Positions 14,041-64,000 are shown, numbered from the stretch's first letter. The stretch: DNA of 64,000 nucleotides from a virus (IMGVR_UViG_3300037257_000073), one strand, 5' to 3'. Made by a program: numbers and translations. Notes: generated from the letters alone by a model not told the origin.

Positions 14041-14042
14041 AG

Positions 14043-14120: not shown

Positions 14121-14900
14121 TTATATTTTATCCCATTCATCATCAGACAAACTATTTATTTCTTTCTTTGAAGAAGGTATATTAAAATGTTTACACCATT
14201 TTCTAATAGCATTATCTGATCTATTGTATAATTTACCAATATTAATAAATGTTTCTGTGCGAACTAAAGTTTTTAAATATTCACGAGTTATACCAAGTTC
14301 ATCGTAAAAATCATTAGCTATTCGTTTAGCAGAACAACTTAAACATAAACCACTTACAGAAGAACTTGTTATAGTATTACCACAAGAATTACAATATAAT
14401 GCATCTATAACTTTATCTTTAACATTTTTACCTTTATAATTATCAGTAAAAGCATGACAGTTTGGACATAATAATTTAAGATTATTTAATTCATTATTAG
14501 TTTTAATACCATCTATGTGGTGTGTTTCTAATGGAATAGGTTCTCCCATTCATTTAGTATTATCACAACATTCACATTTATGTTCTTTTAGATTATTTTT
14601 TAATAATTTATCTCTTAACTTACTTGTTTGTGTATATGCTGAATCTTTACAAAAGATTGTATCTAAAGTGTACACATTCTTAGTTTCATTTGAAGAATTT
14701 CTTTTAAAATGAATTGTGCTAATTTGATGTTTTTTTATCTTAGTTTGAATTGTTTCATAATTACCAGCAGTTAAAGGCAACCCATAATATCTACACACAT
14801 CTGCAAAAGAATAACTTTCTTTTACAATTTTTTCTAAATTTTCTTTTGAATATTTGTTTTCCATAAATTGAACTATTATATTAATAGTACAAAGATACAA
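14121..14900 (-). CDS. HNH homing endonuclease with one in-frame TGA at 14550-14552
   Basis: two adjacent same-frame ORFs; CxxC sits upstream of the TGA and HHIDG..N..LCPNCH downstream, so the HNH motif spans the TGA. Confidence 0.6.
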
Positions 14901-17188: not shown

Positions 17189-17262
17189 TGGAATCTGTGG
17201 GTTTCGAACCCACCACCTATTGCTTGCAAAGCAATCGCTCTAGCCAAATGAGCTAAGACCCC
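17189..17262 (-). tRNA. tRNA-Ala(TGC)
   Basis: anticodon arm ATTGC-TTTGCAA-GCAAT; G3:U70 wobble present. Confidence 0.65.
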
Positions 17263-17427
17263 GATTTAAAGTTTTTTGTGCCACGGTGATTGTATGCCAA
17301 ACTGGTAAAAACTTAATAATACCCATGCGCCAAATACGATGCGCGAGACAAGTATGCATAAACTATCAAACTTTCGTTATTAAGTTCCTAGGCCTTCTCA
17401 ATCTACGTTCAGTTGTTCCTACTGGTT

Positions 17428-17643
17428 TTATTTAATTATTTCAAGTTCTTCTGGAGAATAACCATATCTTAATTTAGAAGGTAACCATCTAACATTCCAT
17501 TCATCACCTTCACCATCAGGATATACTAAATCTTCAACTATACCTATACACTTTCCAAATTCATCAACATGATCTTTACAATCATTTGCAATTAATCCTC
17601 TTTTAAAGGATTTAGTCATTTTAACTATATCTCCTGATTTCAT
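17428..17643 (-). CDS. hypothetical protein
   Basis: ORF trimmed to avoid tRNA-Cys. Confidence 0.3.
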   Translation of the reverse strand: MKSGDIVKMTKSFKRGLIANDCKDHVDEFGKCIGIVEDLVYPDGEGDEWNVRWLPSKLRYGYSPEELEIIK

Positions 17644-17659
17644 AATTTTATTTATTTTG

Positions 17660-17731
17660 AGCCCATACCAAGATTCGAACTTGGGCGTGCGATTTTTGCA
17701 GAATCGAATGTTAACCACTTCACCATACGGG
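17660..17731 (-). tRNA. tRNA-Cys(GCA)
   Basis: anticodon arm CGATT-CTGCAAA-AATCG. Confidence 0.65.
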
Positions 17732-17732
17732 C

Positions 17733-18212
17733 TTATCTATTATTAATAATATTACTAATGGTTCCTTTACTACTAATATTATATTTTTCCATAATTTCTT
17801 TATAAGTATGCCCTAAATTTCGGTATGCTTTAATTTCTAAAACTAATTCATCAGAATATTTTTTATTAGCATTAGATGCAATTCTAATTCTTTCTTCTTT
17901 AGGTTTATCCATCATATTATCACTATATGATCCAATTTCAATATTATCCCAAGAATTATTTAATCCGTTACCATCTAAATGTCTAACTACTATATCTTCG
18001 TTAAAAATAATTTCTCCAAATTTTTGATATGCTTGTAATCTATGTACTTTAACTGGAATATGTTTTTCATTTAATCTAATATTAAATTTTTTATAATTTT
18101 TATTATAAATAGTTCCTGTTAAAATTTTTTCTTTAGGATTTAAAATATCACCATTTATAGTTATTTTATATCCTTTTTCAATTGCTAATAATTCATTTTT
18201 ACTTCTTTCCAT
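17733..18212 (-). CDS. HNH homing endonuclease with a C-terminal HTH
   Basis: VRHLDGNGLNNSWDNIEIGS plus C-terminal ...YKEIMEKYNISSKGTISNI; start moved to an internal Met to avoid the tRNA-like element. Confidence 0.6.
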   Translation of the reverse strand: MERSKNELLAIEKGYKITINGDILNPKEKILTGTIYNKNYKKFNIRLNEKHIPVKVHRLQAYQKFGEIIFNEDIVVRHLDGNGLNNSWDNIEIGSYSDNMMDKPKEERIRIASNANKKYSDELVLEIKAYRNLGHTYKEIMEKYNISSKGTISNIINNR

Positions 18213-18216
18213 ATTG

Positions 18217-18293
18217 TACCTACTCCTGGGATTGAACCAGGCTGTCACCAAATAACCTTTCAACAAGATATAAGCTTGAGGGTATAAGTAGGC
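18217..18293 (-). other. degenerate tRNA-like element
   Basis: perfect T-arm CCTGG-TTCAATC-CCAGG and acceptor GCCTACT/AGTAGGT, but no canonical D or anticodon arm. Confidence 0.35.
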
Positions 18294-19265
18294 ATAAAAA
18301 ATCTCTTTATTCACTTTAAGCAGAGTGGAATAATTATATTGACTTAGGTCATAACGAAGGCTTTTCTGCGAACACTAACCATATCATAACTACATTTACC
18401 AAAACATTCAACCACTGCTATGGTTTATAACCTACGTACTCAACTTTCGTCCTTACCCCTTATTGGGTTGGGTGTCTCCCCCTGGTTACCGTTTTGCTTC
18501 AATTAAAGAGATTTTATTTGTTCAACTTAGAGTAGTCACGGCTACCTCTGATCTCTAAGTCTAATACTAACAGTGGCAAAATGTAGCTCGACCCTAGTTA
18601 GTTTTGTTAATTGGTATGGGCAATAACTTTATAAGTTAAGACTACAACCCCATCTTTGATGGTTTATTCTATCGTAGCTAATAATAAATAAACCTAGTTG
18701 TACTCCAAGCTGGACTTGAACCAGCGACCCTCGGTTTAGAAAACCGATGCTCTATCCACTGAGCTACTGGAGCATTTTAAAAATGAGTAACGGGAGGGAC
18801 AATTACACGCATGTTATCCACGGGACTACACCTACATCTTTTCGTTAGGGATATCTGGACTTAATTCCTCATTCTAAGTCAGCATTGGGTTCCCCTCTTA
18901 CCTGACTCACCGACCATTCTCGGATGTTACTCATTTAATTTTTAAAAATATTGATGTGCTATTACGCCAAAGGGATTTCAGTCCTTACCAGTTACGGGGT
19001 GACCTCCAACTTACCTTACCACATTAAATTCCAACTTGAATTGGTTTATCAACGTAGTCTCGTCCCACTCTTTAGATGATTGCTGCTTCCAAGCCAACAT
19101 TTCAATATTTTATATTTTAAAAAAGATATACTAATTGCGATTGTATATTATAGAAACATCATCGACGATAATAAATTACCATTCTAGATATAACATTCAC
19201 CAATACTTTAAATACGGAGGAATTCCAGAGTCACTTCCCTCATATACAATTAGAGCCCTCTGGAC
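18294..19265 (-). ncRNA. large ORF-free, GC-enriched structured region, candidate GOLLD/ROOL-like RNA, with tRNA-Arg embedded
   Basis: ~950 nt with no ORF over 60 aa on either strand in a densely coding genome; many local inverted repeats; embedded tRNA. Confidence 0.35.
18701..18773 (-). tRNA. tRNA-Arg(TCT)
   Basis: anticodon arm TCGGT-TTTCTAA-ACCGA. Confidence 0.65.
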
Positions 19266-19481
19266 CTAGACTGTTTCTTCTTTTAATTTTTTATTCCATT
19301 TTAAAAATCCTCTAATATTTAAAACTGTAAATGCTAAATACATTATAACTATTGAAATCATATTCCAGAATAATATTATTCCAAGAATACTTCCAATTGC
19401 TCCAAGTATGAAGCCAATTATTCTCTTATTACTTATCAAATAATAAGCGTATAAGTTTAAAATCATTAAAATCCAATCCAT
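19266..19481 (-). CDS. small membrane protein
   Basis: two TM segments. Confidence 0.35.
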   Translation of the reverse strand: MDWILMILNLYAYYLISNKRIIGFILGAIGSILGIILFWNMISIVIMYLAFTVLNIRGFLKWNKKLKEETV

Positions 19482-19684
19482 TATCTATTTGTTTAAGTTT
19501 TAAAAAGGGTTGGGTATATAGTAGAACTTTAATCAACTTATACGTTTATGAATTACACATAATTGCTATCTACCACCCTTTATTTTAACATCCCTCTCTG
19601 CCGCAATCAAGTTTCGGCTGTCTTGTGCTTTGTTTGAACCATTATCAATTGCCGATTTATGGTCACAGAGTTGAGGATATTTAG

Positions 19685-19757
19685 TTGCGAAGGAGGGAAT
19701 TGAACCCCCGACCTCAAGGTTATGAGCCTTGCGAGCTACCACTGCTACCACTTCGCG
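19685..19757 (-). tRNA. initiator-type tRNA-fMet(CAT)
   Basis: C1:A72 mismatch; loop CTCATAA; architecture close to E. coli tRNA-fMet (CGCGAAG..CTCATAACC..TTCAATT..CTTCGCA-A). Confidence 0.55.
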
Positions 19758-19767
19758 ATATATTTTG

Positions 19768-19840
19768 TATAGATGGTGAGACTCGAACTCACGACCCCTT
19801 GCTCCCAAAGCAAGAACGCTACCAACTGCGCCACATCTAT
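19768..19840 (-). tRNA. tRNA-Pro(TGG)
   Basis: perfect acceptor ATAGATG/CATCTAT; loop TTTGGGA. Confidence 0.65.
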
Positions 19841-19843
19841 ATT

Positions 19844-20062
19844 TTAATTATTGAATATTTCACAAATTAATTCTTCAGAAATCCATTCTTCAATTACATC
19901 TTTACTATCATTTTCAGTAATAAAAAATATTTCATGATCTTCTATAGCATCTTTTAAATATCTTGAAACTTTATTAAGATCTGATATGCTTGAAGACTTA
20001 AAAATAAGTCTTGGTGTTTCACGATTACTTATTCTAAGTAAATAATATTTTTTTTCTATCAT
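19844..20062 (-). CDS. hypothetical protein
   Basis: ORF. Confidence 0.35.
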   Translation of the reverse strand: MIEKKYYLLRISNRETPRLIFKSSSISDLNKVSRYLKDAIEDHEIFFITENDSKDVIEEWISEELICEIFNN

Positions 20063-20083
20063 AATTAATTTATCAATATTTTG

Positions 20084-20155
20084 TATTCGGACGGGGAATC
20101 GAACCCCGCTTGCTGGGATGAAAACCCAGATTACTAGCCGCTATAAGACCCGAAC
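20084..20155 (-). tRNA. tRNA-Glu(TTC)
   Basis: anticodon arm CTGGG-TTTTCAT-CCCAG. Confidence 0.6.
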
Positions 20156-23061: not shown

Positions 23062-24492
23062 TTATTTACTTGTTTTTAAATCGGCTTCAAGATAACTCTT
23101 AGCAATAGTGCGAATTTCTGTCCAATGTTGATCTCTCATTAATTTACCATTACGATAAACTATTTCAAGTTCATCAGCATATCCATTATTAATACCATAT
23201 TGTTCTTTAGAACTTTCGATAGTAATGAATTCTGATCCGGCTTTATGAAGTTTCAAAATACCAGCTTTTGAAGCTTTAGTCATATCTCCTTTAGGAGATT
23301 TACGAATATCTTTTGATTCTCCATCAATTACAGCGAAACAGCATTTTACTGCCCAACGATCTGTATCTCTGGTCAATCCTTCAACAAGCAAACCACCACC
23401 TGAACCAACCGCAAAGTTTTCACAAGACCAACCAGTTTTAATGTATTCTGAATAAATATCAACGATTGAATTTTCATTCATACCATCTCCTTGAATTAAG
23501 CCTACATTATGATTAATTACTCTGTAATCTACTTCATTTAAGTGATATCCAAAAATATTACCAAGCATTTCAGAATACTTAATCATATTTGTTAACGGAA
23601 CACCAGAATCCGGACGTAAAATAGTTCTACCTGGACGTGCGATAATACGTTGTTTGATTGCTTCTGAACCAATAACATTTTTAATGAAATTAGTATCATC
23701 ATAAGAATCAATAACAATTGATACCATAGCATCGTCACCAGCGCGATCAAATTGAGCATTGACATAATCAAATTCTCCCTGACCAGGACCAAATACAGTT
23801 GCTACTGAGTGTTCAGTTGCCCATACAGATTTTCCTACGGTTGCATCTCCGTAATAGTCTTCAATAAATTCCATTGCTGGAACATTATCAGAACCATCAG
23901 AAAAGATTAAAGCAGCAGAACCACCTAAACAAGCAGTTTCATGACCTTGAGCACCTCTTAATCCAAAATCATTAACTACATAATCCAACATAGCGTTGTT
24001 AGTAGAGATTTTGAATGATGGAGTAATACCTTTATGAATATTATACATACGAGTAGCAACGGCAACTGGATACCAATTCCACATTAACCAAGGTTCGAAG
24101 TGACTAACCATTGGTGCAAACCACTCTTCAGTAGCTTCAATTGTATAACAAACATTACCAGTTGGAACAACAGTTCCTTCTTTTACAGCTTTGATTTCTA
24201 AAGGATAATATCCTAAATCGCGAACTTTTTCCCAAATTTCTTGAGGGAAATAACCAGGGTTACCAAAAGTATTTAAACTTCTACGAGCACCACGTTCAAT
24301 ATCTTCATTAGTGACAACAGTCATAAAATATTCTTTTATGAAATATTGTATACCATAGAAAACAATATGAGAGTGTTGACCTCCTACACGAGGTTCTCCA
24401 TAAGACATAAGTCTTGTCAATCCCGAAGGACGTTGCGTCCAATGCACAAATTTATATGCATCAGTTGCGGTTGTTGGATGAAATTTTGGCAT
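23062..24492 (-). CDS. nadV: nicotinamide phosphoribosyltransferase (NadV/NAMPT)
   Basis: N-terminal FHPTTATDAYKFVHWTQ matches the NAMPT N-terminus (NILLATDSYKVTHYKQ); 476 aa. Confidence 0.8.
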   Translation of the reverse strand: MPKFHPTTATDAYKFVHWTQRPSGLTRLMSYGEPRVGGQHSHIVFYGIQYFIKEYFMTVVTNEDIERGARRSLNTFGNPGYFPQEIWEKVRDLGYYPLEIKAVKEGTVVPTGNVCYTIEATEEWFAPMVSHFEPWLMWNWYPVAVATRMYNIHKGITPSFKISTNNAMLDYVVNDFGLRGAQGHETACLGGSAALIFSDGSDNVPAMEFIEDYYGDATVGKSVWATEHSVATVFGPGQGEFDYVNAQFDRAGDDAMVSIVIDSYDDTNFIKNVIGSEAIKQRIIARPGRTILRPDSGVPLTNMIKYSEMLGNIFGYHLNEVDYRVINHNVGLIQGDGMNENSIVDIYSEYIKTGWSCENFAVGSGGGLLVEGLTRDTDRWAVKCCFAVIDGESKDIRKSPKGDMTKASKAGILKLHKAGSEFITIESSKEQYGINNGYADELEIVYRNGKLMRDQHWTEIRTIAKSYLEADLKTSK

Positions 24493-25067: not shown

Positions 25068-25406
25068 TTATAGTTTTATTAATTTAATAAATTTTGAAGT
25101 GTCTTGTTTAATAACATCGTGTTGAAATCTTTCATAAAATTTAATATCAACTGCTTCAAATTCATGAACAAACCATCCAAATTTTTGAAGTTTAATAATA
25201 TCTGCTTTAGGAAACCATTGATATAAACCCTCTAATGATTCAGTAACTGATAACCAGCCTACTAATTTAGGATCAAAATCCATTTCAAGTTTTGAATTTA
25301 AACAAAAATTAAAATCATTATGAATTAATCCTGTAAAAATACCTTTATAATCATACCATAAACCTTGATGGGTATTTATGTTACATACTCTGTAGTATTT
25401 TTTCAT
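25068..25406 (-). CDS. hypothetical protein
   Basis: ORF; ATGA start/stop overlap with the upstream gene. Confidence 0.4.
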   Translation of the reverse strand: MKKYYRVCNINTHQGLWYDYKGIFTGLIHNDFNFCLNSKLEMDFDPKLVGWLSVTESLEGLYQWFPKADIIKLQKFGWFVHEFEAVDIKFYERFQHDVIKQDTSKFIKLIKL

Positions 25407-26302
25407 TTTTCAGTATTTTTTAATAAGTCAACTAATAACTTTTTATGTTCTCCAACCAAGATTTTGTCTAGCTCAGGACCGTATGGGAACCATTTTAAGG
25501 CAGCAATATCATCTTGAGGTTGTGGACTACCAAAAGTATATTTACATTTGTATAAATGCGTCATAATTTTAGCATCATGTGAATTCTTATATCGCCAATC
25601 TTCTACACGTTTTGAACAAACGAATTCAAAGTCAGCAAGTTCAAGACCTGTTTCTTCTCTACCTTCACGACGAGCAGCAGCTTCATCGGATTCATCAGTA
25701 ACATCAACAAATCCTCCAACAAAACACCATTCTTTTTCATCAGGTTTTTGACCTAATAGAATTTCACCTTTTTCATTAAAGATTGCAACATCAACTGTTG
25801 AAAATGAGCGGGGATATTGTGAAAAAACCGAATAAATTATACCAGCTCTGAAATCAGATGATGCTAATATACGTCCGGCAACTTTCTTTCTAATATCTGT
25901 TGCAGATATATAGACTTCTGGTTCAAGTACAGTTGTTTTCCAATTTCCAGTATAATATGGAATAAACGAATCTTTACCTCCATAAAGAGTAACTGTTCCA
26001 GATGGAAAAATATCTCTTACTTTAGTACGAATTTGAGTAGACCATACTTCATTGGATTTACAATCAGCAAGTGGTACAATTGAAGATATTCTATTTCTAA
26101 AATGTGCTTCGATCATAGCTTTACGGGTAATAAAATCCAATGGATTTCTTTGAGTACCCATTGCAGATGTAGTTCCTAAGAATAAAATTACCTTTTCGTG
26201 GTTTGCAAGAACATGTTCAATTAACTTGATATGTTCAGTATGCAATTCGTGTAGCTGAAATCTCCCGATAACAACTCCAATTTCTGTTTGAGTTTCGTTC
26301 AT
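25403..26302 (-). CDS. bifunctional NMN adenylyltransferase / Nudix hydrolase (NadM-Nudix, NatV-like)
   Basis: N-terminal GVVIGRFQ nucleotidyltransferase motif; Nudix box GGFVDVTDESDEAAARREGREETGLEL; ends on TGA. Confidence 0.75.
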   Translation of the reverse strand: MNETQTEIGVVIGRFQLHELHTEHIKLIEHVLANHEKVILFLGTTSAMGTQRNPLDFITRKAMIEAHFRNRISSIVPLADCKSNEVWSTQIRTKVRDIFPSGTVTLYGGKDSFIPYYTGNWKTTVLEPEVYISATDIRKKVAGRILASSDFRAGIIYSVFSQYPRSFSTVDVAIFNEKGEILLGQKPDEKEWCFVGGFVDVTDESDEAAARREGREETGLELADFEFVCSKRVEDWRYKNSHDAKIMTHLYKCKYTFGSPQPQDDIAALKWFPYGPELDKILVGEHKKLLVDLLKNTEK

Positions 26303-28157: not shown

Positions 28158-28172
28158 TTAATTTCAATTTAA

Positions 28173-28579
<407 letters not shown>

Positions 28580-37749: not shown

Positions 37750-37879
37750 TTCTTTTTATCATTTTGTGTTTAACCTACACGAATTGTGTAACGCACTAAG
37801 CTTAATAACTTTATACTCCCTTAGTGGAGTTAAAACGAGGATGCTATAGAATCGTGATCCCATAGCATCCCTATTCTAT

Positions 37880-40033
37880 TTAGATAATTGTTGAGATTTT
37901 CAACAACTTTTTCTTCTTATCAATACTTTTAAAAGCATTAGGTGATAACATTTCACAAGTTGTTCTATATAAACCACCTACTTTACGTAATTTCTCTAAT
38001 TGAACTTTTAATTCTTCAGTAGATAAAACTGTGGTTGGCTCAAAAAAAGGTTTAATGTGCTTAACTTCTTGTTTTTCATACTCATCTTTATTAATAAAGA
38101 AAGTTTGATTTCCAACAGATACTGGAATAGAATCTAAAGTTCTAGCAAAAGCTTCTGCTTCTCCTAAAGTTTTAAACCATTTTAATCCAATAGAATCTTT
38201 ATTTCCAGACCAATTCACACCTTTAAGATGAATTGCTTTAGGAGAATCAAATTTAAAACATGATTCACTAATACCAATTCCAATATCACCTTTTTTCATA
38301 ATAGATACACCTACAGGATCATTATCAATTGCAACAAAATAACCAAATTCACTAAGTTTTTCAATAATGATTTTATCAGGATGTTCTTTAGGAAGATATT
38401 GTTGAATTTCAGATAAATCAGTAATTAAAACTGGAGTATAATCTTTTAAACTTAAATATCCTTTTTTATCATGAAATTTAGAATCTGTATTTATATTTTC
38501 ACCCCAAAACTGATAAGAATTTTCTAAATGTGAAAATTTACTAATCCAAACACCTAATTTATACCATTTACCAACTTCAAATCTAGATACTTCTTTAGCC
38601 CAAACACCGTTATTAAATATCCTTGCACTAGCATTAGCACGTACAGGATTTGGATCAACAGGAATATAAATTTGAGTACTTTTATTATTGAAACTAAGAT
38701 TATAATTCTTAATATCAAAATCTAAAGTATTACGTAAATCAGTAAATCTTTTAAGAGGATATCTCTTTAGTATTTCTGTTTTAAATAACTCATGAGAATC
38801 ATATTCAGAAGTTGGAATTAAACCTTCTTCAGAAAATCCTTCAGATTCAAACCATTGTCCTTTATGAAATCCCCAAACAGAGTTTCTATGATACAAATGA
38901 ACGATGTAATCTTTCTTTTTATACCATTGCCCCCAAGGTAAATCTTTTTTAATAGGTTCAACAAATGGAGTAGTATCTTCAGGAATTTTTTCAGCCCATT
39001 TACCAGTATAAGCATTATAAATAATACCATTAGTGCCATTATCTTTAGTACCGATATTTCCACTACTATTAAATTTAGGAATATCTTTAACACATATACC
39101 TGTAATTGAAACTAAACCTGAAGTTGCAGAATTAAATTTAGTACCAATAGGATATTCTTTAATGGCACGTTCTAATAATGCAATTTTTGGATCTATAGGT
39201 TTTTCATCAGTTAAACGAGAAACTAATTCAAATTCCTCAAAAAATGTAGATGAATCACCAGCAAAACTAATTTTTTTACATTTTGAAAAATCAATATCAA
39301 TTGTAAGAATTTCTCCAATTTTACGAGAAACATATCCATTTACATTACCAATACATTTTACTTTATCACCAATTTTAAGAGTTTCATACCATTTAGGTTT
39401 ATTGACTGAATAATTATTCTCTTTACACCAAACTTCAAATGATAAAATTTCATAAGAACTAGCTTTATTAGAAGTACTAAAAAATGAATTATTAGGAGAA
39501 TTAATATCAATAATATCACCACACTCTCTATAACCAACTTTATCAATTCTTTTGAGCTTTGAAGCAGCAAAATCCCATTGTTGTTGATTAGCACAGTGAA
39601 CACCTTTAGGTTTATCAATAAATTCAGTAAGTTTACACATTTGTTCATAATTCATATCAAATTCAAACGTGTTGACACAAACTGCACCAATTCTTGTTTT
39701 ATTACAAATACGAACATTAATTTGTTCCATTTTTATAAAAACAAACTCTCTTTTAAGATAATTGATAATAACAATTGTTTTTTTGCTTTTTTCTTTTTCC
39801 CATTTTTTGATTGCTTTGTATTGTCCACGTCCAACAGTTATTCTTGGAATAACATCACAACCTTCTGGTGGAATAATATATAGCAGATCACAGCCCAACA
39901 TCTGCTCATTAGGATCAGCAGGATCATATTCAAATACGAGACATCCTCTTTTTTTAAGAATGTCTCGTATAATTTGAACATTAATCGGATTAGCAGATTT
40001 GGATGCTGAAAGAAATACTTTCAACTGTCCCAT
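37880..40033 (-). CDS. giant multi-repeat protein with a TIR-like or NDT-like N-terminal domain
   Basis: N-terminal KVFLSASKS...LLYIIPPEG; repeated KxGDxV/Trp-rich modules; C-terminal KWFKTLGEAEAFARTL shared with the 885-aa protein. Confidence 0.45.
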   Translation of the reverse strand: MGQLKVFLSASKSANPINVQIIRDILKKRGCLVFEYDPADPNEQMLGCDLLYIIPPEGCDVIPRITVGRGQYKAIKKWEKEKSKKTIVIINYLKREFVFIKMEQINVRICNKTRIGAVCVNTFEFDMNYEQMCKLTEFIDKPKGVHCANQQQWDFAASKLKRIDKVGYRECGDIIDINSPNNSFFSTSNKASSYEILSFEVWCKENNYSVNKPKWYETLKIGDKVKCIGNVNGYVSRKIGEILTIDIDFSKCKKISFAGDSSTFFEEFELVSRLTDEKPIDPKIALLERAIKEYPIGTKFNSATSGLVSITGICVKDIPKFNSSGNIGTKDNGTNGIIYNAYTGKWAEKIPEDTTPFVEPIKKDLPWGQWYKKKDYIVHLYHRNSVWGFHKGQWFESEGFSEEGLIPTSEYDSHELFKTEILKRYPLKRFTDLRNTLDFDIKNYNLSFNNKSTQIYIPVDPNPVRANASARIFNNGVWAKEVSRFEVGKWYKLGVWISKFSHLENSYQFWGENINTDSKFHDKKGYLSLKDYTPVLITDLSEIQQYLPKEHPDKIIIEKLSEFGYFVAIDNDPVGVSIMKKGDIGIGISESCFKFDSPKAIHLKGVNWSGNKDSIGLKWFKTLGEAEAFARTLDSIPVSVGNQTFFINKDEYEKQEVKHIKPFFEPTTVLSTEELKVQLEKLRKVGGLYRTTCEMLSPNAFKSIDKKKKLLKISTII

Positions 40034-42701: not shown

Positions 42702-42787
42702 TATGGATAAAAGGATTTGAACCTCCGACCTCCGGCTAATGTTTTTGTCTTGCTGCCGACGCTCTAACCAGGCTGAGCTATATCCAA
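42702..42787 (-). other. aberrant tRNA-like element with an 18-nt anticodon loop
   Basis: normal D-arm GCTC/GAGC and T-arm GGAGG-TTCAAAT-CCTTT; stem TCGGC/GCCGG encloses AGCAAGACAAAAACATTA. Confidence 0.4.
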
Positions 42788-42956: not shown

Positions 42957-43247
42957 TTAATTTTTAAGTTCACTATATGTTGCAACTCCATCTTTAATGG
43001 TTACTACAACTTTAATATCAATTCCTCTTACTCCTTCTTCAGTAGTAAGTTCGTAATTTTTGCCATTGAATTTAATATCAATAACATAACCACCCCAAGT
43101 TCCACTATAAATTCCATCAGGAAGTGTTACTTCCTGTGGAACTTTTACTGTTATTTTTGTGATTTTTCCCATCTTAAAACTTAATTTTAAGCATACGTTT
43201 AAATGAACCTTGTACTTTGACAATAAGTTCATCACGAACAGTTGCAT
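42957..43247 (-). CDS. hypothetical protein
   Basis: ORF. Confidence 0.35.
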   Translation of the reverse strand: MQLFVMNLLSKYKVHLNVCLKLSFKMGKITKITVKVPQEVTLPDGIYSGTWGGYVIDIKFNGKNYELTTEEGVRGIDIKVVVTIKDGVATYSELKN

Positions 43248-45330
43248 TGAAACCTAAACCAGATAACTGCTTATCTGCCGGTGCTATCATAGTGGTGTTA
43301 CCCAATACTTCAAGTACTTTACGATGTTCTGCTAATTCAGGTATTAAGTTCTCTGCGTGGAAACTACGAATAGAAGATGGAGATTTACATTTGTCTAACA
43401 TGAAGAAGTAATGTTTGTTTCCAACATTATTATCTCCCCAATGATTCGGACTCAAGCAAACTAAGTTTACTTTATGAAATTCATTGGTTTGTATATTGTA
43501 AAGTTCTCTTGAACCATTAACTGGTTCAATTTTATGATCAATAGTAAATTTACCATTTTTCAATGTAACTTCAGCAATAGTAACCCATTGATGACATTTA
43601 GTTGCAGGATATTCATATTGAAAGATTTCTCCATCAAATTCAATTTCTGCTTTACCACGACCACCTGTTGTTCTAAAATTCCAATTATGAATTTTACAAA
43701 TATACTTACCTTCTGGCATTTTGTTAATGTCAGGAAAAGTAATATTCTCAACAGGAATATATCCTGCTGGGGCTGCTGAAGTATAATCAACATCTTGAAC
43801 GCCACCAGATTGACTATCAGTACGATTATTCCAACCAACACGTCGTCCAGAACCATATGTATTATGAACAATATCATCGGCACGATGAGAATTACCAGGC
43901 ATGAATACATGTAAATCCATTAATGATTGATTAGGTTCTAGTTCATTCCAAGAATGACTAAAACGAAATACACCATCAACACGACCACCTGATGCAGAAA
44001 CTGCTTCACGTAACTGAGATTTACCAGCTAAATTACCATTGAACGTCCAACTATAGTTGTTATCCCATTTAAATATTGACTTAGAATCCGGATTATTAGC
44101 AGTAGTTAATGACACCATATTACCACCGTGATTGTTTGCTAAGAAAGCTTCAACTGATATACAAGCAGGAAGGATATCCTTCATAAATGATTCAATAGAT
44201 ACTTCTTTAACATCATCAAACTCGCTACGTTTGTGACGAGTTGACACAGCCGGTTTAACAGAATCAAAAATTGATACAGATGGAATACTACCATCACCTA
44301 CATTACTATGGAGAATTTCAGCAACTTTGATGTCGTCGAGAATTGCAAAACGTCGATTAAACGATTCAGTGTATCCGTTATTTTCCACAAACTTTTGAGC
44401 TTCCTCAATTTGTTTCTTAGTAATAGGTGCGACAGCTTTCATATAGTTAGCCGGATCAACACGTTTGTTCCAAGATTGGACAGCAGCATTTAACTCTTTA
44501 CCTTCTGATAACTCCGAGCATAACACTCCAAGTAACTCATTTCTGAATTTTGCAATAGGTAAATTGTAAGATTTTATCCAACACCATGCAGCACGTTTGT
44601 TAGCAGCAAGAGCATCATATTCTTTTTTCAAAGGTATGAATTGCTCAACTTTATACAAATGTGTTTGACCATCAAGTAATGAACCTTGAATAATCAAATC
44701 TTTTACAAGATTCAATGTATCAATGTGAATTTCTTGCATGGCGCGTTCAAATACTTCTTTCGAAGATCTGAAATCAGCCATAATTGTTGCACTTGACTTA
44801 CCAGTCTTATCAACATACATAGCTGGAATATCCAGGTGCATATGATTGAATGTAACTACTTCGTTAGGTTTAACAACACCGAATTTTTCAGCTTCTTCTC
44901 TGGTATAACGTTTATCGTTTTTGTCAATACCTAAACGAAACTTAGTAAGAGTTTTCTTACATTGTTCATAAGGTAATGAATTCAATTCATCATACGTTTC
45001 CGTGAAAATGTTTGCTATTGGAGCTTTACTTAAAGCAGCAGACAACGCGATTGTTACAGGTAAGAATTCACCAGGGCCTTCAAAATCAAATAATGAAAGA
45101 ATTCCATTAGCTGGTGTGATTGCTACGATATTACCGTAACGACGAAGGAAATTCTTACACAAATTACAATTGTGTTCAGAACTTTCCGGATCTCTAAACA
45201 TAGGATCATCTTCAAATGATTTGAGATATAAATCCCACACTTGATCACCCGTCATTTCAGACCTGAAAAGTTTACCCACTTCACACATTAGTGCAAGTTG
45301 GGCTTGAAGTTGTTTGTTAAAATTTAACAT
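43174..45330 (-). CDS. large hypothetical protein (718 aa)
   Basis: uninterrupted ORF; every Trp is TGG. Confidence 0.5.
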   Translation of the reverse strand: MLNFNKQLQAQLALMCEVGKLFRSEMTGDQVWDLYLKSFEDDPMFRDPESSEHNCNLCKNFLRRYGNIVAITPANGILSLFDFEGPGEFLPVTIALSAALSKAPIANIFTETYDELNSLPYEQCKKTLTKFRLGIDKNDKRYTREEAEKFGVVKPNEVVTFNHMHLDIPAMYVDKTGKSSATIMADFRSSKEVFERAMQEIHIDTLNLVKDLIIQGSLLDGQTHLYKVEQFIPLKKEYDALAANKRAAWCWIKSYNLPIAKFRNELLGVLCSELSEGKELNAAVQSWNKRVDPANYMKAVAPITKKQIEEAQKFVENNGYTESFNRRFAILDDIKVAEILHSNVGDGSIPSVSIFDSVKPAVSTRHKRSEFDDVKEVSIESFMKDILPACISVEAFLANNHGGNMVSLTTANNPDSKSIFKWDNNYSWTFNGNLAGKSQLREAVSASGGRVDGVFRFSHSWNELEPNQSLMDLHVFMPGNSHRADDIVHNTYGSGRRVGWNNRTDSQSGGVQDVDYTSAAPAGYIPVENITFPDINKMPEGKYICKIHNWNFRTTGGRGKAEIEFDGEIFQYEYPATKCHQWVTIAEVTLKNGKFTIDHKIEPVNGSRELYNIQTNEFHKVNLVCLSPNHWGDNNVGNKHYFFMLDKCKSPSSIRSFHAENLIPELAEHRKVLEVLGNTTMIAPADKQLSGLGFNATVRDELIVKVQGSFKRMLKIKF

Positions 45331-45923: not shown

Positions 45924-47030
45924 TTACTGAATGATATGAGGTACAAAATACGACATGTTGTCAGTAATTCTTGACGATGTTTCACGGATACCAAAACCAC
46001 AAGACTCTCCACCAATAACCCACGATCCTAAGATCGGATACATTCCATCAAAAGACGGTATATCAACAAGTTCTTGGAAGATAAATCCTTCTTCTCCATA
46101 TTCACCTTCAGTTTCTTCAAGAACTTCACCATTTTTTACAAGGGTTACGTTAGCACCTTCTCTTGAGAATATTGGTTTTTTACAATAGTTACCAGGAAGC
46201 GGTTGATCAGAAGCTTTTAATACGTATGGAGAATTAGGAAACAATTTGGCTACAATAGTAAGTAAATACTTGTTGCTCATAACGGCTTTCCAAAGAGGTT
46301 CGATGAATGTTGTTGCACATACAGGAATAGTTTTTCCAAACTCTTCGTTGAACATCCATTCATATGGATACAATTTAAAAAGAACATCAAGGTTATTACC
46401 ATCAGCGTCAGTAAACAATTCATCATTCGAATGAATTTCTTCAACATCCATCAACGTTACATTCAATCCAGCTTCAGCAGCAGTTGATAGTATGTATGCA
46501 GTGGTAGTATGATCTTCAAGATTTTCTTTACCACATGCAAAATAATACATATCCGATTGATATTGTGTATGAATGTCTTTCCAACTTTGAATAAGGGCTT
46601 CATGAATTGAATTGAACTGATCATTACCAGGATATACTTCTTCTTTCCACATCCATTGTACAATGGCTGCTTCAAATAGAGATGTCGGGGTATCAGCATT
46701 AAATTCAAGACATTTTGGAACACCATTGATAAATGCAAAATCAAAGCGACCATACAGTGACAATTCATCACTATTCCACGAGTCAACGATTACTGGAATC
46801 ATTTCAGCGGGGATATGTAATTTGTCCCAAAGATTATTATCAATAACATGTTGTACGGCAGCACAATACATTTGATAACATTCAACAGTTGCTTTTTCAA
46901 TTTCTTCAATTTCTTTTGATGAAAAAGAATACACGGCATTTTCGAGCCAATAGTTTTCATTGAATTCGAAACCTAAATCAGATAATTTTTGTTTATAATC
47001 TGATCTAGGATTTATTTTAAGTCTAATCAT
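45924..47030 (-). CDS. glutathionylspermidine synthase-like ATP-grasp protein
   Basis: YGRFDFAF and GSWVIGGESCGFGIRE motifs. Confidence 0.55.
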   Translation of the reverse strand: MIRLKINPRSDYKQKLSDLGFEFNENYWLENAVYSFSSKEIEEIEKATVECYQMYCAAVQHVIDNNLWDKLHIPAEMIPVIVDSWNSDELSLYGRFDFAFINGVPKCLEFNADTPTSLFEAAIVQWMWKEEVYPGNDQFNSIHEALIQSWKDIHTQYQSDMYYFACGKENLEDHTTTAYILSTAAEAGLNVTLMDVEEIHSNDELFTDADGNNLDVLFKLYPYEWMFNEEFGKTIPVCATTFIEPLWKAVMSNKYLLTIVAKLFPNSPYVLKASDQPLPGNYCKKPIFSREGANVTLVKNGEVLEETEGEYGEEGFIFQELVDIPSFDGMYPILGSWVIGGESCGFGIRETSSRITDNMSYFVPHIIQ

Positions 47031-50362: not shown

Positions 50363-50773
50363 TTATTTATATCGAGGTAAATCTTGTTTAATTTTACTAT
50401 ATTCATTTCCTCCAATCATTAATCCATTTTTGTAAGCATGAATTTTATTTTCAGAATCAGTACACCATTCAAGATTTACTAATGAATTATTTAATTTATT
50501 TCCATCTATATGATTTACTTGTAAATTTTCAAAGATTGGTCTAAATGTTAACATTACTATTCTATGAACATGTAATGTTTTTATTCCATTTCTATTTTCA
50601 GCAGTAAATCTTAAATATCCAAATTTATTAGGAGATAATTTTAATATTTTCCCTTTTAATTTTCTTCCAATTTTAGATATTCTATTTAAACTTCTTATTC
50701 TTCCTAAATTAGAAACTTGATATATTTCTTCATATTCAGGAATGTCTTTTCAGATTTCTTCTATTTCTTGCAT
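50363..50773 (-). CDS. HNH homing endonuclease (NUMOD4-type N-terminus) with an in-frame TGA at 50750-50752
   Basis: MQEIEEI-TGA-KDIPEYEEIYQVSNLGRIRS; the TGA lies where the Trp of the conserved WKDIPGYEGLYQVSNLGRVRS motif sits; HNH VNHIDGNKLNNSLVNLEW. Confidence 0.6.
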
Positions 50774-51489: not shown

Positions 51490-54147
51490 TTAATCTTCTG
51501 AAAGATAAATAAAATCGATTTCATCATCAAAATTCTTTGATGCTATAACAGAATGTTCTGATGCAAATTTATAAGGAATATTCAATAATTTATTCATTTC
51601 ATTGTGGATTAAATTACCAATCTCTTCAGATGTAGCTTTACGAACGCAACTATTTTTAAGCATGTGATCTAAAGACCAACCACCATCACCAGCTTCAATA
51701 TGACAATCGAAACCGTCTATTTTAATTCTAGTAATTTTTGCTGTAAATGGATATGATACTTTAGTAAGTAGATTTTTACGATTACAACGACTTGACCACA
51801 ATTTAGGTTCTCTAGTAATTGTAATATAATCACCAACAGTATAACCTTCATATAATTTTGATTTAGGTTCAGTTCGTGAAATATGATCATTAATAATCTT
51901 ATTAACAACTTCCATATCAGCTAAATGCGGAGTATCCCAATAAGTATGTGCTGAATCTTTTTTCCATACTCCACGATTAATACATTCATCATATTCAAAA
52001 TGATCTGTATGAACCTTAAAACATTTACGAAAATTCTTAGCATTTCCACTAGCATCTTGCGAATACCATTTACTTACTTCGAATTTTGATGGTGTTTCAG
52101 ATTTTGGTTGAGTATATATCTTACAATACAATTCAGAATAATCACGTTTTACTGTTTCAAATGGAACTCGTTCACATACAGTTATATCTTTTAAATAAAT
52201 AAATCCACCGTTCTCAAGACATTTTTTATTACAACAATCATAATAAATTATTGTATCTATTCTTTCTTTTTCTAATTTTGCATCAGTAAATAGAAAGATA
52301 TAACTATACTTTGATAAAGTTACCCTATAAAATTCATTATGTTGAAAATTCAAATTAGGTGATGTACTTTCTGGTTTATAATCCTTTGGTAACACTTCAA
52401 AATCAGATGAAGTAGAATTGTTTGTTGTATAAGTCCAACCTTTTTCAATTTGATAAGAAACAAGTGAAAATTGATCAAGAATTTTAATAATATCACCTTT
52501 TTTTAATGATGTACTTTGTGGATGATCCACAGTTGCTCTTAAATATCGACCGGTTAAATCGTCTTCTGTTGACATAGGTTCTTCAAATTGAGTTTTTGCA
52601 AATGCTTCAGCTTCAGATTTAGTAGCAAACCATTTAGCTTCACTAGCTTTAGATAAATTACAATAATCAGTTCCATTATAAGGAAGTGATACTTTAACAG
52701 TTACTGGACCATTATCTCTTATTATTTTATCAATAGTTCCTTTAGGATGTCCACCATAATCTTTTAAAAGCACAACATAAGTGCCAACAGACCATTTTTC
52801 AGGTTGAGTTTCTTTAACAATTTCTGCCCAAGTATTTTTATCAAAGTCAAATAATGTAACTTTTTTGTCACCATCTGTTATAACTCTTTTATTTTCTTTA
52901 AAAAATGCAGGAGTTTTTAAAACAGTATATTTATCATTTGAAACCACAGGAGACATAACAATAGTACCAATAGGATAACGACGAATTGCTTCGTCTAAAA
53001 CTTCTTGAGTATCACGTTCATTCCAATCTTTTTTCGCTAATTCAACTATTTCAGCCCATTTACCACAAAGAAATACATGACATTGTCTAGCTTCATCACA
53101 TACATTATTTCTTGGATCAATTGTTAATTTAGATCCTAATGTATATATTGATCCAGTTGGTTTATTTCTGTATTTAGTTCCAATAGGATACCTTTTATTA
53201 GCTTCAGCAAGAAGTTCTTCTTTAGAAACTTTAGTCCAATCCTTTTCTGTATTAGTTGAAGTTTCTTTCAAAACATATTGTTTGAATTGAGTAAAAGTTA
53301 TTTCTTCATATTCACTAAGCTTATCAGTATTTTTTGACAAACTATTAAACTTACCAGGACTTATACATAACCAATAATTTTGTACATTACTGTTAGTCCA
53401 CCCTTTTGATTTAAATAATTCATTAGCATAAGGAATAAGAAGTTTACCTTCAGCTTCAGAAGTAGCTATAACACGCCATTTTAATGGTAATGTGAATTCT
53501 TTAGGTTTAAATACCCATTTTTTAAACTGATCCATTGTGAGTTCAGGAACTTCTAAATGATTTATATTATTCCAAGCACCATCTTCAAATAAATAACCGG
53601 CAGTTCCTCTATATTCATCATCATAACGAGATGTTTTTTTTCGCCATTCACTAATCAATTCAAAATCAGGCATAAGTTTATTAACAGCAATACACCATTT
53701 TTTAGGTAATGAAGTTAATTCAGAATTCCATAAATCATAAAGAATTTGAGCTCTTTCTTTAGGATTACTTCCTTTTAATTTTAAATAAACTTCTTCATAT
53801 GGACAAGTTGCACCTAATGAAATATGATTTTCTAATCCGTATAAAGAAAATGATCTTTCTTTGGTTTCTTTAAGCCACCTTTCTAATAAATCATCAGAAA
53901 CAAATGGATCATAACCTAAAAGTTCTTGAATAGTTATTTCTGTTTTATTATTACTATTATGTCTTGAATAAAATTCTTTTTCTCTAGTATTAACTATATA
54001 AGGCCATGTTCCTCCACTAAATTGACGATATAAAGTATCTTTAGGAACAGAAGTATTCCATCCTTGACCTATTAATTTATCATATACTTTTTCAAATATT
54101 TCAAAAGTAATAGACGGATTATATTTTAAATATTTATTCTTTAACAT
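51490..54147 (-). CDS. giant multi-repeat protein (885 aa), paralog of 37880-40033
   Basis: shared motifs GKWAEIV and KWFATKSEAEAFAKTQ; every Trp is TGG. Confidence 0.5.
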   Translation of the reverse strand: MLKNKYLKYNPSITFEIFEKVYDKLIGQGWNTSVPKDTLYRQFSGGTWPYIVNTREKEFYSRHNSNNKTEITIQELLGYDPFVSDDLLERWLKETKERSFSLYGLENHISLGATCPYEEVYLKLKGSNPKERAQILYDLWNSELTSLPKKWCIAVNKLMPDFELISEWRKKTSRYDDEYRGTAGYLFEDGAWNNINHLEVPELTMDQFKKWVFKPKEFTLPLKWRVIATSEAEGKLLIPYANELFKSKGWTNSNVQNYWLCISPGKFNSLSKNTDKLSEYEEITFTQFKQYVLKETSTNTEKDWTKVSKEELLAEANKRYPIGTKYRNKPTGSIYTLGSKLTIDPRNNVCDEARQCHVFLCGKWAEIVELAKKDWNERDTQEVLDEAIRRYPIGTIVMSPVVSNDKYTVLKTPAFFKENKRVITDGDKKVTLFDFDKNTWAEIVKETQPEKWSVGTYVVLLKDYGGHPKGTIDKIIRDNGPVTVKVSLPYNGTDYCNLSKASEAKWFATKSEAEAFAKTQFEEPMSTEDDLTGRYLRATVDHPQSTSLKKGDIIKILDQFSLVSYQIEKGWTYTTNNSTSSDFEVLPKDYKPESTSPNLNFQHNEFYRVTLSKYSYIFLFTDAKLEKERIDTIIYYDCCNKKCLENGGFIYLKDITVCERVPFETVKRDYSELYCKIYTQPKSETPSKFEVSKWYSQDASGNAKNFRKCFKVHTDHFEYDECINRGVWKKDSAHTYWDTPHLADMEVVNKIINDHISRTEPKSKLYEGYTVGDYITITREPKLWSSRCNRKNLLTKVSYPFTAKITRIKIDGFDCHIEAGDGGWSLDHMLKNSCVRKATSEEIGNLIHNEMNKLLNIPYKFASEHSVIASKNFDDEIDFIYLSED

Positions 54148-56971: not shown

Positions 56972-57046
56972 GTTTTTGAGTTTGATATGTTTAAACATAT
57001 TTCGTCCAGTCTCATCAGAAACTATTTTATACTCTACTGGTTGAGT
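56972..57046. promoter_or_regulatory. conserved intergenic repeat R2
   Basis: TTTTGAGTTTG + palindrome ATATGTTTAAACATAT + TTTCGTCCAG + hairpin CCAGT..ACTGG. Confidence 0.45.
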
Positions 57047-58036
57047 TAATAAAAAAGAGAGTACACACTATATGTCCAAATGCGACGATGTGTACTCCCT
57101 TAGTGTTTGTTATCAAAATTAATATGATAACCATTGTTTACTTCGCGGTACATCACCGATAAAATCGGTGAATCTAACCGGGAAGCATTCTTTCGTAATA
57201 AAGAGCTTCACCCTTTTGCTCCCATAGCCAGTTTCAGGACGATATTACGTTGGCTTGTTTTTGACACCAGCAATTAGCACGGCATCGGTTTTAGTATACC
57301 TATCTTTTATTAATTTGTCTTCAAGGATTGACAGAATGGATGCTATTTGTACATATAGCCGTTATACCTTACACTCGGAAGTTCCACACTTTCATCGGAG
57401 GATTGCGCACAGGTTTTCATTATACTTATTTGCAGTTAGTATTATACTGTTTAAAGGCATCAAACCACCATACTGAATCTCTTCTTGATTAGTTATTCAG
57501 ATATGCTTCTTATATAAGAGATTATATTATTTATAACGTTATTATATAGAGAATATACATATCCAACCGTTTATCTGATGAAAGTTGCTTGATGCTAAGA
57601 GTTTAAAGTATATTTACAATAATTGCAGCTAATAAAAATCCAGCTGCGGCAGCATATAAATGCGACATAATATGATTTTCTTTATCAAAACATATTAATC
57701 CCATAAATATATCAAATGCTAAACATAGACTGAGTATAATTACCATTAGCTTATGTATTTAAACATTAATATTCCACAATCAATAAGTAAAGAAAGCATT
57801 ACATATCCCATTCGTGATTCTTCTTGCCATTTGATAATATTGAATTGTAGTCCAATAAATGAACCTAACAAGTAAAAGATAATCCATGGTGCAATGTATA
57901 ATAGAGTTTTTTCAGTTTTAGTCATGTTTTTTGATTTTACATTCTATTGATATAAACATTGCACACAATTCTACAAATAAATAGAAGATTAAGAACGGTG
58001 ATAAACAAATTACTATTGCTTGAGTTTTAGTTAACA

Positions 58037-59454: not shown

Positions 59455-59540
59455 TTTTTGAGTTTGACGGGAGTGATGAGCTCCCCGTTTCGTCCTAGTC
59501 TCTTCAGAAACTGATGTTATACTCTCCTAGGCTGAGTCAT
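59455..59540. promoter_or_regulatory. conserved intergenic repeat R3
   Basis: TTTTGAGTTTG + hairpin ACGGGAG..CTCCCCGT + TTTCGTCCTAG + hairpin CCTAG..CTAGG. Confidence 0.45.
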
Positions 59541-62199: not shown

Positions 62200-62460
62200 A
62201 GTAAACTTTTGCGTTTGATACAACAAATTTTGCGTATCAATATGTAAAGTTTTACGGACAGCCACATTAAGTATAGAATTATTAAGTATATATTAAGTAT
62301 ATGGAAACCTTGTAATTCACTGTGTCACAATAACTTAACCGTTTTCATACAAACTCGAGCGTATCATTTGAAAATTCCGACGTATCATTTGAGATTTTTT
62401 GCGTATCATTTGGAGTTATCTTATTGACTATTAACCGATTACAAATGATATGCTCGAAGT
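62200..62460. promoter_or_regulatory. iteron-like direct repeats at the strand switch (candidate origin or operator)
   Basis: GTATCATTTG three times in direct orientation at ~62358, 62381, 62404 (23-bp spacing) plus an inverted copy at ~62445; related TTTTGCGT(A/T)T boxes at 62209 and 62231; AT-rich tract and CGCGCGCG upstream. Confidence 0.45.
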
Positions 62461-62530: not shown

Positions 62531-63325
62531 TTGTGTATCAAATTTAATACGATGAGTGAAGAAAAAGAAAAGAAAACAAATAGACACGTCCAAGTGCCAA
62601 ACTCTGTCGCTAACAATGTAGACAGTGATAAGAAATCTAAATACAAAAAGCACTATACTGATGTCTTAGTTTATGGTTTTCTTCGAAAAAATATGGACGG
62701 AAAAACAATGGTGGCATTTATATCCTTAAAAATTATAGCAGACTCGATTGACATGTCGGTCGGTGGTGTATCAGCTGCAATTAAAAGATTAGAAGAAGCA
62801 GGAGATGTAACAAAAATTAAAATGGAAGGTGGACGAAATCAAAATGGATATAAATTTAATCCACATTCCGACAAGTTTGAAATGTATGATTTAAGTTTCC
62901 TCGAAAATAAAGAACTTAATAGTTTACAGAAATCATATTATATGATTATGCAACCTTATTTATATATTGATAAAGAAACTGGAATAGGTAAAACTACTTA
63001 TAGTGATATTGAAATTTCAGAAATAACAGGTATATCTAAAACAGTAGCACAAGAACGTAGACGAGAATTAGAATCACTTGGTTTTATAAACAGAAGAACA
63101 ACTACAGATATGGAAGGTAACTCTTGTGAAGCACTTGAATTTAATCTTCCTAAGTTTGGACAATTTGTTATGTGTAAAATTAAAGAACACGATGTTGCAA
63201 TAACTGATTTAAATATAAAAGTAAATCAATTAGAACAAGAACTAAATCATCTAAGAAAACAAATGAAACTTAAAGGAGAATATACTCCTTACGAAGAAAA
63301 CACTAATAACGAAATAACATTATAA
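62531..63325 (+). CDS. HTH DNA-binding protein, candidate replication initiator or regulator
   Basis: two HTH-like segments (ISLKIIADSIDMSVGGVSAAIKRLEEAG; ISEITGISKTVAQERRRELESLGFI); directly downstream of the iterons; no Trp. Confidence 0.4.
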   Translation: MCIKFNTMSEEKEKKTNRHVQVPNSVANNVDSDKKSKYKKHYTDVLVYGFLRKNMDGKTMVAFISLKIIADSIDMSVGGVSAAIKRLEEAGDVTKIKMEGGRNQNGYKFNPHSDKFEMYDLSFLENKELNSLQKSYYMIMQPYLYIDKETGIGKTTYSDIEISEITGISKTVAQERRRELESLGFINRRTTTDMEGNSCEALEFNLPKFGQFVMCKIKEHDVAITDLNIKVNQLEQELNHLRKQMKLKGEYTPYEENTNNEITL

Positions 63326-63636: not shown

Positions 63637-64000
63637 ATGGAAGTAATACAACACTTCGTTCGTAATGACGACCATGATGAATTATACATTATGGAAATTG
63701 AAGGGAAAGCTTATGCTAGGATGTATTGATTCCATGATGATCCAAAATCAGTTTACTTAAACTCTTTAAGTGTTGAGAATAACGAAAGAGAACAAGGACT
63801 TGGAACTAAAATGCAGGAACTAAGAGAGAAAATAGGAATAGAACTCGGAGCTACACAATCCTTTTTATGAGTTAAACGGGATAGTTGAATGTATGAATGA
63901 TATACCCGAAGAGGTTATAACGATTTCTCAGATTACACAGATGATGATAGTATGATATGAATGATTAAAATGTTAAATGATAACAATACTAAATACAAAG
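63637..64000 (+). CDS. GNAT-family N-acetyltransferase with five in-frame TGA (partial at window end)
   Basis: frame open from ATG 63637 to the window end if TGA at 63727, 63868, 63886, 63898 and 63958 code Trp; GNAT motifs REQGLGTK and EWYTRRGYNDF; all Trp are TGA, none TGG. Confidence 0.5.

Follow-up and report, generated by a model that had tools for sequence, protein, structure and literature searches.

At the right-hand end of a 64,000-nucleotide stretch of viral DNA (the window), a plus-strand frame runs up to the last nucleotide with several TGA codons and no TGG, whereas other genes in the same stretch use TGG and can stop at TGA. The locus raises three questions: whether the frame is a gene, whether TGA encodes Trp within it, and how one phage might use the same codon in two ways.

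The window is phage-like, has a GC content of ~30%, and comes from a phage genome of at least 175 kb. We stitched together 102.5 kb from the window, a 175-kb ENA contig (1 mismatch in 10,676 nt of overlap), and identical IMG/VR fragments found by exact-protein look-ups. Positions beyond the window are given as window-equivalent coordinates.

A GNAT-type frame at the end of the window

Translation of the window sequence agreed with the original prediction. From the ATG at 63637 to 64000 on the plus strand, the frame contains five TGA codons and no TGG, TAA, or TAG. It reads MEVIQHFVRNDDHDELYIMEIEGKAYARMY*FHDD...SFL*VKRDS*MYE*YTRRGYNDF...MI*MIKML..., where each asterisk is a TGA. In the source contig the gene has 123 codons and ends at a TAA (window-equivalent 64006-64008), and the window stops 8 bases short of the gene end. 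The features of the gene are as follows.

63637..64000, plus strand: GNAT acetyltransferase gene (372 nt, of which the 5' 364 nt are in the window); TGA at all five Trp positions
63727..63729, plus strand: TGA codon 31; TGG in the 60%-identical ortholog L004
63868..63870, plus strand: TGA codon 78; TGA in three of three orthologs with DNA read
63886..63888, plus strand: TGA codon 84; TGA in three of three orthologs with DNA read
63898..63900, plus strand: TGA codon 88; TGA in three of three orthologs with DNA read
63958..63960, plus strand: TGA codon 108; TGA in three of three orthologs with DNA read

The pattern alone is within chance. Opposite real genes, several antisense frames likewise extend for more than 100 codons free of TAA and TAG, with several TGAs and no TGG. 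Because such TGA-rich, TGG-free frames of ~120 codons are not rare, the case for the GNAT gene rests on homology, on conservation, and on the fact that no other gene competes for the locus.

Homology of the readthrough product to GNAT proteins, which the original prediction had proposed, was found at a marginal level. With TGA read as Trp, Pfam Acetyltransf_1 (PF00583) matched residues 11-94 at 22.4 bits against a cut-off of 20.7 (E = 1.6e-4), and the match covers four of the five TGAs. One ortholog (P0004) carries PF13508/PF00583. By reading the sequence, we placed acetyl-CoA motif A (Q/R-x-x-G-x-G/A) at residues 51-56, where it takes the form R-x-x-G-x-G (REQGLG); among five orthologs R51 is invariant and G54 and G56 are variable. 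Codon 88 is the hydrophobic or aromatic position preceding the C-terminal GNAT motif Y-x-x-x-G-[FY], which was placed in the same way. A PHROGs profile search with the GNAT protein gave no match, and no relatives of it were found beyond this phage clade.

Structure prediction also points to a GNAT fold. For the ortholog P0001, which is 89% identical, the best AlphaFold model had a pLDDT of 76.6, and one of five models was confident. When this model was compared with the PDB by Foldseek, the best 50 matches listed were GNAT-type acetyltransferases or complexes containing one (PaiA, RimI, and others). The matches had a probability of 1.00, query TM-scores of 0.54-0.65, and 10-21% identity to solved GNATs; no close characterised relative was found among the solved structures matched.

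Four orthologs from metagenomes are 60-89% identical to the GNAT protein, and the DNA was read for two of them (L004 and L005). None of the five TGAs is lost in L005. In L004 (60% identity), codon 31 is TGG, codons 78, 84, 88, and 108 are TGA, and there are extra TGA and TGG codons elsewhere. Against these two orthologs dN/dS was 0.24-0.35 at a dS of 0.65-1.35 (Nei-Gojobori), and three of three orthologs with DNA read lack TAA and TAG. The dN/dS values place the frame under purifying selection straight through its TGAs. They also argue, with the absence of TAA and TAG, against a decayed pseudogene or non-coding stretch, a reading that might be suggested by the ENA gene calls (standard code), in which the GNAT gene is reduced to a 30-aa stub. 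Therefore, by sequence and model, 63637-64008 is a real GNAT-superfamily gene under purifying selection, with a predicted role as an acetyltransferase.

Gene classes in the two arms

The genome has two arms that diverge at ~62.0-62.5 kb. The minus-strand arm makes up nearly the whole window and contains 24 tRNAs, a tmRNA, fmt, NAD-salvage genes, and ribozymes. The plus-strand arm begins with the initiator-like gene listed below, followed by a 103-aa ORF, GNAT, small ORFs, a tRNA, HNH, RNR, PhoH, and a PD-(D/E)XK nuclease. It continues with GroEL/ES, GIY-YIG genes, the large terminase (TerL), the portal, and large structural genes.

62359..62453, no strand: iteron-like repeats between the arms; three direct GCGTATCATTTG copies at 21-nt spacing and one inverted copy
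62552..63325, plus strand: winged-helix replication-initiator-O-like gene, first of the plus arm and two genes upstream of GNAT; no Trp codon
63325..63636, plus strand: 103-aa ORF; no Trp codon; its TAA stop directly abuts the GNAT ATG

The iteron-like repeats coincide with the cumulative GC-skew minimum. The divergent intergenic region in which they lie (62204-62453) also has triple ATTAAGTATA repeats and adjoins the replication-initiator-O-like gene. This region is probably the arm boundary and a putative origin of replication. As originally noted, the two plus-strand ORFs upstream of GNAT (257/264 aa and 103 aa) have neither TGG nor TGA.

Several other features of the minus arm were seen along the way. 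Auxiliary metabolism genes on this strand encode a nicotinamide phosphoribosyltransferase (23062-24492), a NadM-Nudix-like protein (25403-26302), and a glutathionylspermidine-synthase-like protein (45924-47030). Two RAGATH-1 hammerhead ribozymes (56979-57047 and 59461-59538) and a pistol ribozyme (37769-37830), all on the minus strand, scored above the Rfam gathering thresholds, and both hammerheads lie within a 3.7-kb stretch (56.4-60.1 kb) that holds small ORFs only. The tmRNA (28171-28579, minus strand; Rfam, 107 bits) has the predicted tag GNKTISFARTAFMAAA. A tie between the phage tmRNA and TGA readthrough is only speculation.

We counted TGG and in-frame TGA codons per gene with a simple codon-score gene model over the stitched 102.5 kb.

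Minus arm, 141 genes: TGG 286; in-frame TGA at most 9, some of them in doubtful calls; stops TAA 108, TAG 19, TGA 13
Plus arm, 39 genes: TGG 61; in-frame TGA 56, in 18 genes
Plus arm beyond 75 kb (packaging, structure), 17 genes: TGG 27; in-frame TGA 45
51490..54147, minus strand: 885-aa gene of the TGA-free class; 23 TGG, 0 TGA
43174-45330, minus strand: 718-aa gene of the TGA-free class; 11 TGG
37880-40033, minus strand: 717-aa gene of the TGA-free class; 15 TGG

TGA was not distributed uniformly, and the arms differed strongly (Fisher p = 9e-27). This fits the earlier proposal of two gene classes with different Trp and stop usage, and the 885-, 718-, and 717-aa minus-strand ORFs on which it drew have no in-frame TGA. 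The share of in-frame TGA is highest in the terminase, the portal, and the downstream structural genes; no lysis genes were located. The proposal had also set plus-strand against minus-strand genes. The classes do differ gene by gene, but they are not defined by strand, because both arms contain exceptions. On the plus strand, RNR (14 TGG and 0 TGA), the PD-(D/E)XK nuclease (4 and 0), and GroEL (1 and 0) are TGG-only. On the minus strand, two homing endonuclease genes carry TGA.

50363..50773, minus strand: NUMOD4/HNH homing endonuclease; TGA 50750-50752 at residue 8, inside the NUMOD4 motif (Pfam E = 2.2e-17)
14121..14864, minus strand: HNH endonuclease; TGA 14550-14552 in C-x-x-C...W...HHIDG; Pfam HNH match weak

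A plus-strand HNH paralog has TGG at the place matching TGA 14550-14552. Standard-code ORF calling splits or shortens both TGA-carrying homing endonucleases of the minus arm. A GIY-YIG/NUMOD1 homing endonuclease at window-equivalent 77703-78536 (plus strand) has an in-frame TGA too.

The original prediction had offered a horizontally acquired code-4 module as one explanation of the contrast. A recent acquisition of GNAT from a code-4 organism or phage would account for its position, as no other gene within the opening 2.5 kb of the plus arm carries TGA (in GNAT, five of five Trp codons) and the small neighbors of GNAT use TGG. However, its coding score per codon is similar to those of neighboring genes, which points to native codon usage, and the order of wHTH (Rep-like) gene, small ORF, and GNAT is the same in the 60%-identical relative. 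Its TGAs have been kept over a dS of ~1, no source outside the phage clade came to light, and TerL, portal, and PhoH, which are native genes, also use TGA. We therefore set the acquired module aside and consider it extremely unlikely.

Code 4 might instead apply throughout the genome and in the host, so that TGA would never be a stop and its scarcity in the minus arm would be due to chance. The JGI calls on identical contigs take TGA as sense, and extensions beyond the minus-arm TGA stops are mostly short, as this reading would predict. Against it, 286 TGG and at most nine TGA codons in 141 AT-rich genes are the opposite of what code-4 genomes have. The stops themselves also look genuine. As originally described, fmt ends at TGA 11733-11735 (minus strand). 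Its Formyl_trans_C domain is complete just before this codon and a tRNA-Tyr gene starts 5 nt downstream, so that readthrough would enter the tRNA. NadM-Nudix likewise ends at TGA 25403-25405 (minus strand), in an ATGA overlap with the start codon of the next gene, and an A comes directly before 10 of the 13 TGA stops (ATGA). The segments downstream of the minus-arm TGA stops score as non-coding.

Two further comparisons were null. Back-up stops were not significantly closer after the minus-arm TGA stops (median of 5 codons to the next TAA or TAG versus 8 in controls; one-sided Mann-Whitney p = 0.052), and the nucleotide after TGA showed no usable difference between sense codons (T16/A16/G14/C5) and stops (T7/A5/G1).

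The terminase bears on the same question. The closest GenBank terminases are from crAss-like or other Bacteroidota phages, at 27-44% identity (27-30% to named Crassvirales and 44% to an unclassified gut contig). By sequence, the large terminase of this phage is distantly crAss-like. Bacteroidota use the standard code, which argues against a code-4 host, and in such a host the tRNA(UCA) that the phage encodes (see below) would be superfluous. Genome-wide code 4 is therefore very unlikely.

tRNA(UCA) and the reading of TGA

To which amino acid does TGA correspond? In PhoH, TerL, portal, and two other genes aligned with those of eight related phages, the codons opposite this genome's TGAs were TGA (44), TGG (32), Tyr (15), Phe (9), and other (7), and none was Gly (0). 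An earlier, more redundant tally of aligned codons gave the same picture. At PhoH residue 112, for example, the codon is TGA here, TGA in the relative L022, and TGG in L027. Matches spanning TGAs were found for PhoH (Pfam, 194 bits), TerL (phrog_6681, 1.8e-70), and portal (phrog_6547, 4.1e-51). By these alignments TGA is Trp in the recoded genes of this phage, and readthrough itself is predicted.

The original prediction had pointed to a phage-encoded suppressor tRNA as something to look for elsewhere in the genome. ARAGORN found one, tRNA(UCA), outside the window on the same contig. It lies 2.65 kb past the window end, on the same strand as GNAT and apart from the array of 24 tRNAs in which the TGG-reading tRNA-Trp is located.

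Window-equivalent 66652-66725 (L001:13328-13401), plus strand: tRNA(UCA), TGA-reading; 74 nt; Rfam tRNA, 62.9 bits
13616..13697, minus strand: tRNA-Trp(CCA), reads TGG; in the 24-tRNA array of the standard-code arm; long variable arm

The anticodon loop of tRNA(UCA), CUUCAAA, is normal. Its acceptor stem is 7 bp long, with A1-U72 and G73, its variable loop is short, and the tRNA is conserved in the relatives L012 and L014. In bacterial tRNA-Trp, A1-U72 and G73 serve as identity elements.

Two other meanings of TGA were considered. Code 25 (Gly) was rejected because there is no GGN opposite the TGAs and because A1-U72/G73 of tRNA(UCA) is not Gly identity. ARAGORN labels the tRNA 'SeC(tca)', which would favor selenocysteine, but its 74-nt length, 7-bp acceptor stem, and short variable loop do not fit the shape of tRNA-Sec, and the aligned codons are Trp, Tyr, or Phe. 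That the GNAT frame is a decayed pseudogene or non-coding, or that its TGAs encode Gly or selenocysteine, is a prospect that we regard as negligible.

The tRNA array (7929-20155, minus strand) covers all 20 amino acids with a tRNA for each; the wobble nucleotide is mostly U, and fmt (11733-12677) and small ORFs lie among the tRNA genes. The array includes four tandem long-variable-arm tRNA-like genes with 4-nt spacers (13528-13877, minus strand): Leu(UAG), 'Trp(CCA)', a Leu-like copy, and 'Tyr(AUA)'. The Leu-like copy (13702-13783) has a UUCG tetraloop in place of the anticodon loop, and it and 'Tyr(AUA)' (13788-13877) were detected by ARAGORN only. A further tRNA at 42702-42787 (minus strand; Rfam, 47.5 bits) was missed by ARAGORN, and its anticodon stem encloses an 18-nt loop, which is ~11 nt too long. 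These odd tRNAs (the UUCG-tetraloop copy, 'Tyr(AUA)', and the 18-nt-loop tRNA) were considered as hidden suppressors and rejected, as none has a UCA anticodon.

GNAT belongs to the first unit of the plus strand, together with the replication-initiator-like gene and tRNA(UCA). The zero gap between the TAA of the 103-aa ORF and the GNAT ATG makes co-transcription probable. No plus-strand terminator-like site was found between GNAT and tRNA(UCA), and the first strong plus-strand terminator, the single strong one in the scan of the plus-arm start, is at window-equivalent 67565-67591. GNAT therefore probably shares a transcript with the initiator-like gene and tRNA(UCA). A sigma-70 promoter scan of the plus-arm start was uninformative (42 sites versus 42 expected).

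We propose that this phage uses two codes side by side and that its own tRNA(UCA) allows TGA to be translated as Trp in some genes, GNAT included. We put the probability of this reading at roughly 87%. tRNA(UCA) would act as an opal suppressor in a subset of phage genes. Most other genes encode Trp by TGG only and can stop at TGA, so that their translation requires no modification of a standard-code host. The host would use the standard code, and its TrpRS would charge tRNA(UCA). The GNAT message would yield a 30-residue peptide without the suppressor and the full 123-aa protein with it. Genes containing TGA could then be delayed or gated until the suppressor builds up, as in the Borges/Yutin model (10.1101/2021.08.26.457843; PMC7886860).

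A crude motif search of six-frame code-4 translations of the 102.5 kb found nothing convincing for RF1/RF2 (GGQ) or TrpRS (HIGH/KMSKS). Nor did TerL have a relative when searched against one genome per GTDB species, which gave no host or prophage clue. Megablast of the last 4 kb against GenBank phages gave no match, indicating that there is no close cultured relative.

Stage-specific recoding had been put forward originally as the other explanation of the contrast. Its recoding part is upheld by tRNA(UCA) and by the TGA-rich terminase, portal, and structural genes; the 'stage-specific' part would be a further step. Because GNAT probably shares its transcript with the initiator-like gene and tRNA(UCA), any gating of it would be translational and possibly early to middle, not strictly late. 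GNAT may be translated fairly early, which is a poor fit to a simple 'late genes only' scheme. PhoH and the homing endonucleases also carry TGA, and recoding thus extends beyond structural and lytic genes. It is conceivable that TGA is a gene-by-gene translational lock instead of a block-wise 'late code', with GNAT, PhoH, and the HNH/GIY-YIG homing endonucleases gated and the tmRNA and full tRNA set helping the infected cell to cope with TGA readthrough across the genome. The lock would then apply to a GNAT in the origin-side first operon, the one that includes the suppressor tRNA, and to homing endonucleases within the standard-code arm. We consider this doubtful. If true, a gene-by-gene lock would widen the model, now one of timing for lysis and structural genes, to the fine control of genes that are selfish or potentially toxic.

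The dual-code reading is also compatible with a less purposeful origin of the TGAs. Once an efficient suppressor existed, AT-biased mutation might have turned TGG into TGA wherever this was harmless, so that TGA would have no positive regulatory role in GNAT and the gene pattern would merely mark genes needed before the suppressor is present. Such tolerated drift is a tentative reading, which we think less likely than not. It fits the ~30% GC genome, the mixture of TGA and TGG within TerL, portal, and the L004 GNAT gene, and the apparent placement of GNAT and its suppressor in one transcription unit. It also fits variation of the code state among close relatives. In two relatives with TerL 42-62% identical (L011 and L027), the TGA/TGG counts of terminase and portal were 0/5, 0/5 and 2/11, 0/5; closer relatives have 5-10 TGAs in TerL. 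L011 and L027 are thus nearly TGA-free, and the code state differs within the phage clade.

Two observations do not sit easily with drift. Four of the GNAT TGAs have been kept in three lineages at the dS given above, although shared ancestry weakens this point. In addition, the PD-(D/E)XK nuclease and GroEL are strictly TGG-only in every relative that has them, whereas TerL and portal are recoded in most, which shows that selection acts on the choice between TGA and TGG. The drift and timer views are not mutually exclusive. Both the gene mosaic and the homing endonucleases with TGA offer useful test cases for deciding between a timer and tolerated drift.

The dual-code reading has consequences for gene annotation and for the study of recoding. 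Standard-code gene callers fragment the GNAT, PhoH, terminase, portal, and structural genes of this lineage, as seen in the ENA calls. The identical sequence has been called in two ways: ENA, with the standard code, splits GNAT, PhoH, and several others, and in the JGI calls TGA is a sense codon. As a result, the public protein sets disagree for this phage. The phage is also an internally controlled case, because a suppressor tRNA and TGG-only, TGA-stop, and TGA-as-Trp genes occur within ~100 kb and relatives exist in different code states.

Comparison with known recoded systems

Partial phage recoding has been published since 2014-2022. This phage is clearly a further case of the established dual-code phages and not a new phenomenon, and since the phenomenon has been described before, the present case serves as confirmation and extension.

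In the code 4 of Mollicutes, recoding is genome-wide, with a tRNA-Trp that has a UCA anticodon, no RF2, and TGA never a stop. The phage resembles Mollicutes in that a tRNA with a UCA anticodon would read UGA as Trp. It differs in that TGA stops 13 genes and is avoided in ~140 genes.

In crAss-like and other phages, the partial recoding of TGA to Trp by means of phage suppressor tRNAs is established. A survey covers jumbo phages (PMC13037316), and reassignment of TGA to Trp in part of the genome has been described in crAss-like phages (Yutin et al. 2021, PMC7886860). Like the crAss-like phages, this phage has a two-arm genome and phage tRNA arrays that include suppressors, and its code state switches across short phylogenetic distances (PMC7886860). 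Unlike that set, it comes from JGI and ENA environmental metagenomes and not from gut sets. It is also at least 175 kb, with a tmRNA, fmt, and a tRNA set of one per amino acid, and its likeness to crAss-like phages rests on TerL.

Block-wise dual-coded phages handled by Mgcod (bioRxiv 10.1101/2022.06.29.495998) share with this phage the need for two translation tables and a switch at the change of strand and arm. In contrast to those blocks, the pattern here is a gene mosaic, with TGG-only RNR, nuclease, and GroEL genes in the 'code-4' arm and TGA-containing HNH genes in the 'code-11' arm.

The same dual-code architecture has been described in gut phages (Borges et al., bioRxiv 10.1101/2021.08.26.457843). 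As in the Jade, Sapphire, Agate, and other phages of that study, TGA is reassigned to Trp, a TGA suppressor tRNA is present, and structural genes are heavily recoded. The remainder is compatible with the standard code, GC content is low, and close relatives use the standard code. This phage differs from those gut phages (10.1101/2021.08.26.457843) in that the crude motif search of the 102.5 kb gave no sign of a TrpRS/RF1 'code-change module' and the recoded set includes the GNAT beside the putative origin, PhoH, and homing endonucleases in the standard-code arm. What is mildly new here is an origin-proximal GNAT gene in which all five Trp codons are TGA, together with recoded homing endonucleases inside a standard-code arm.
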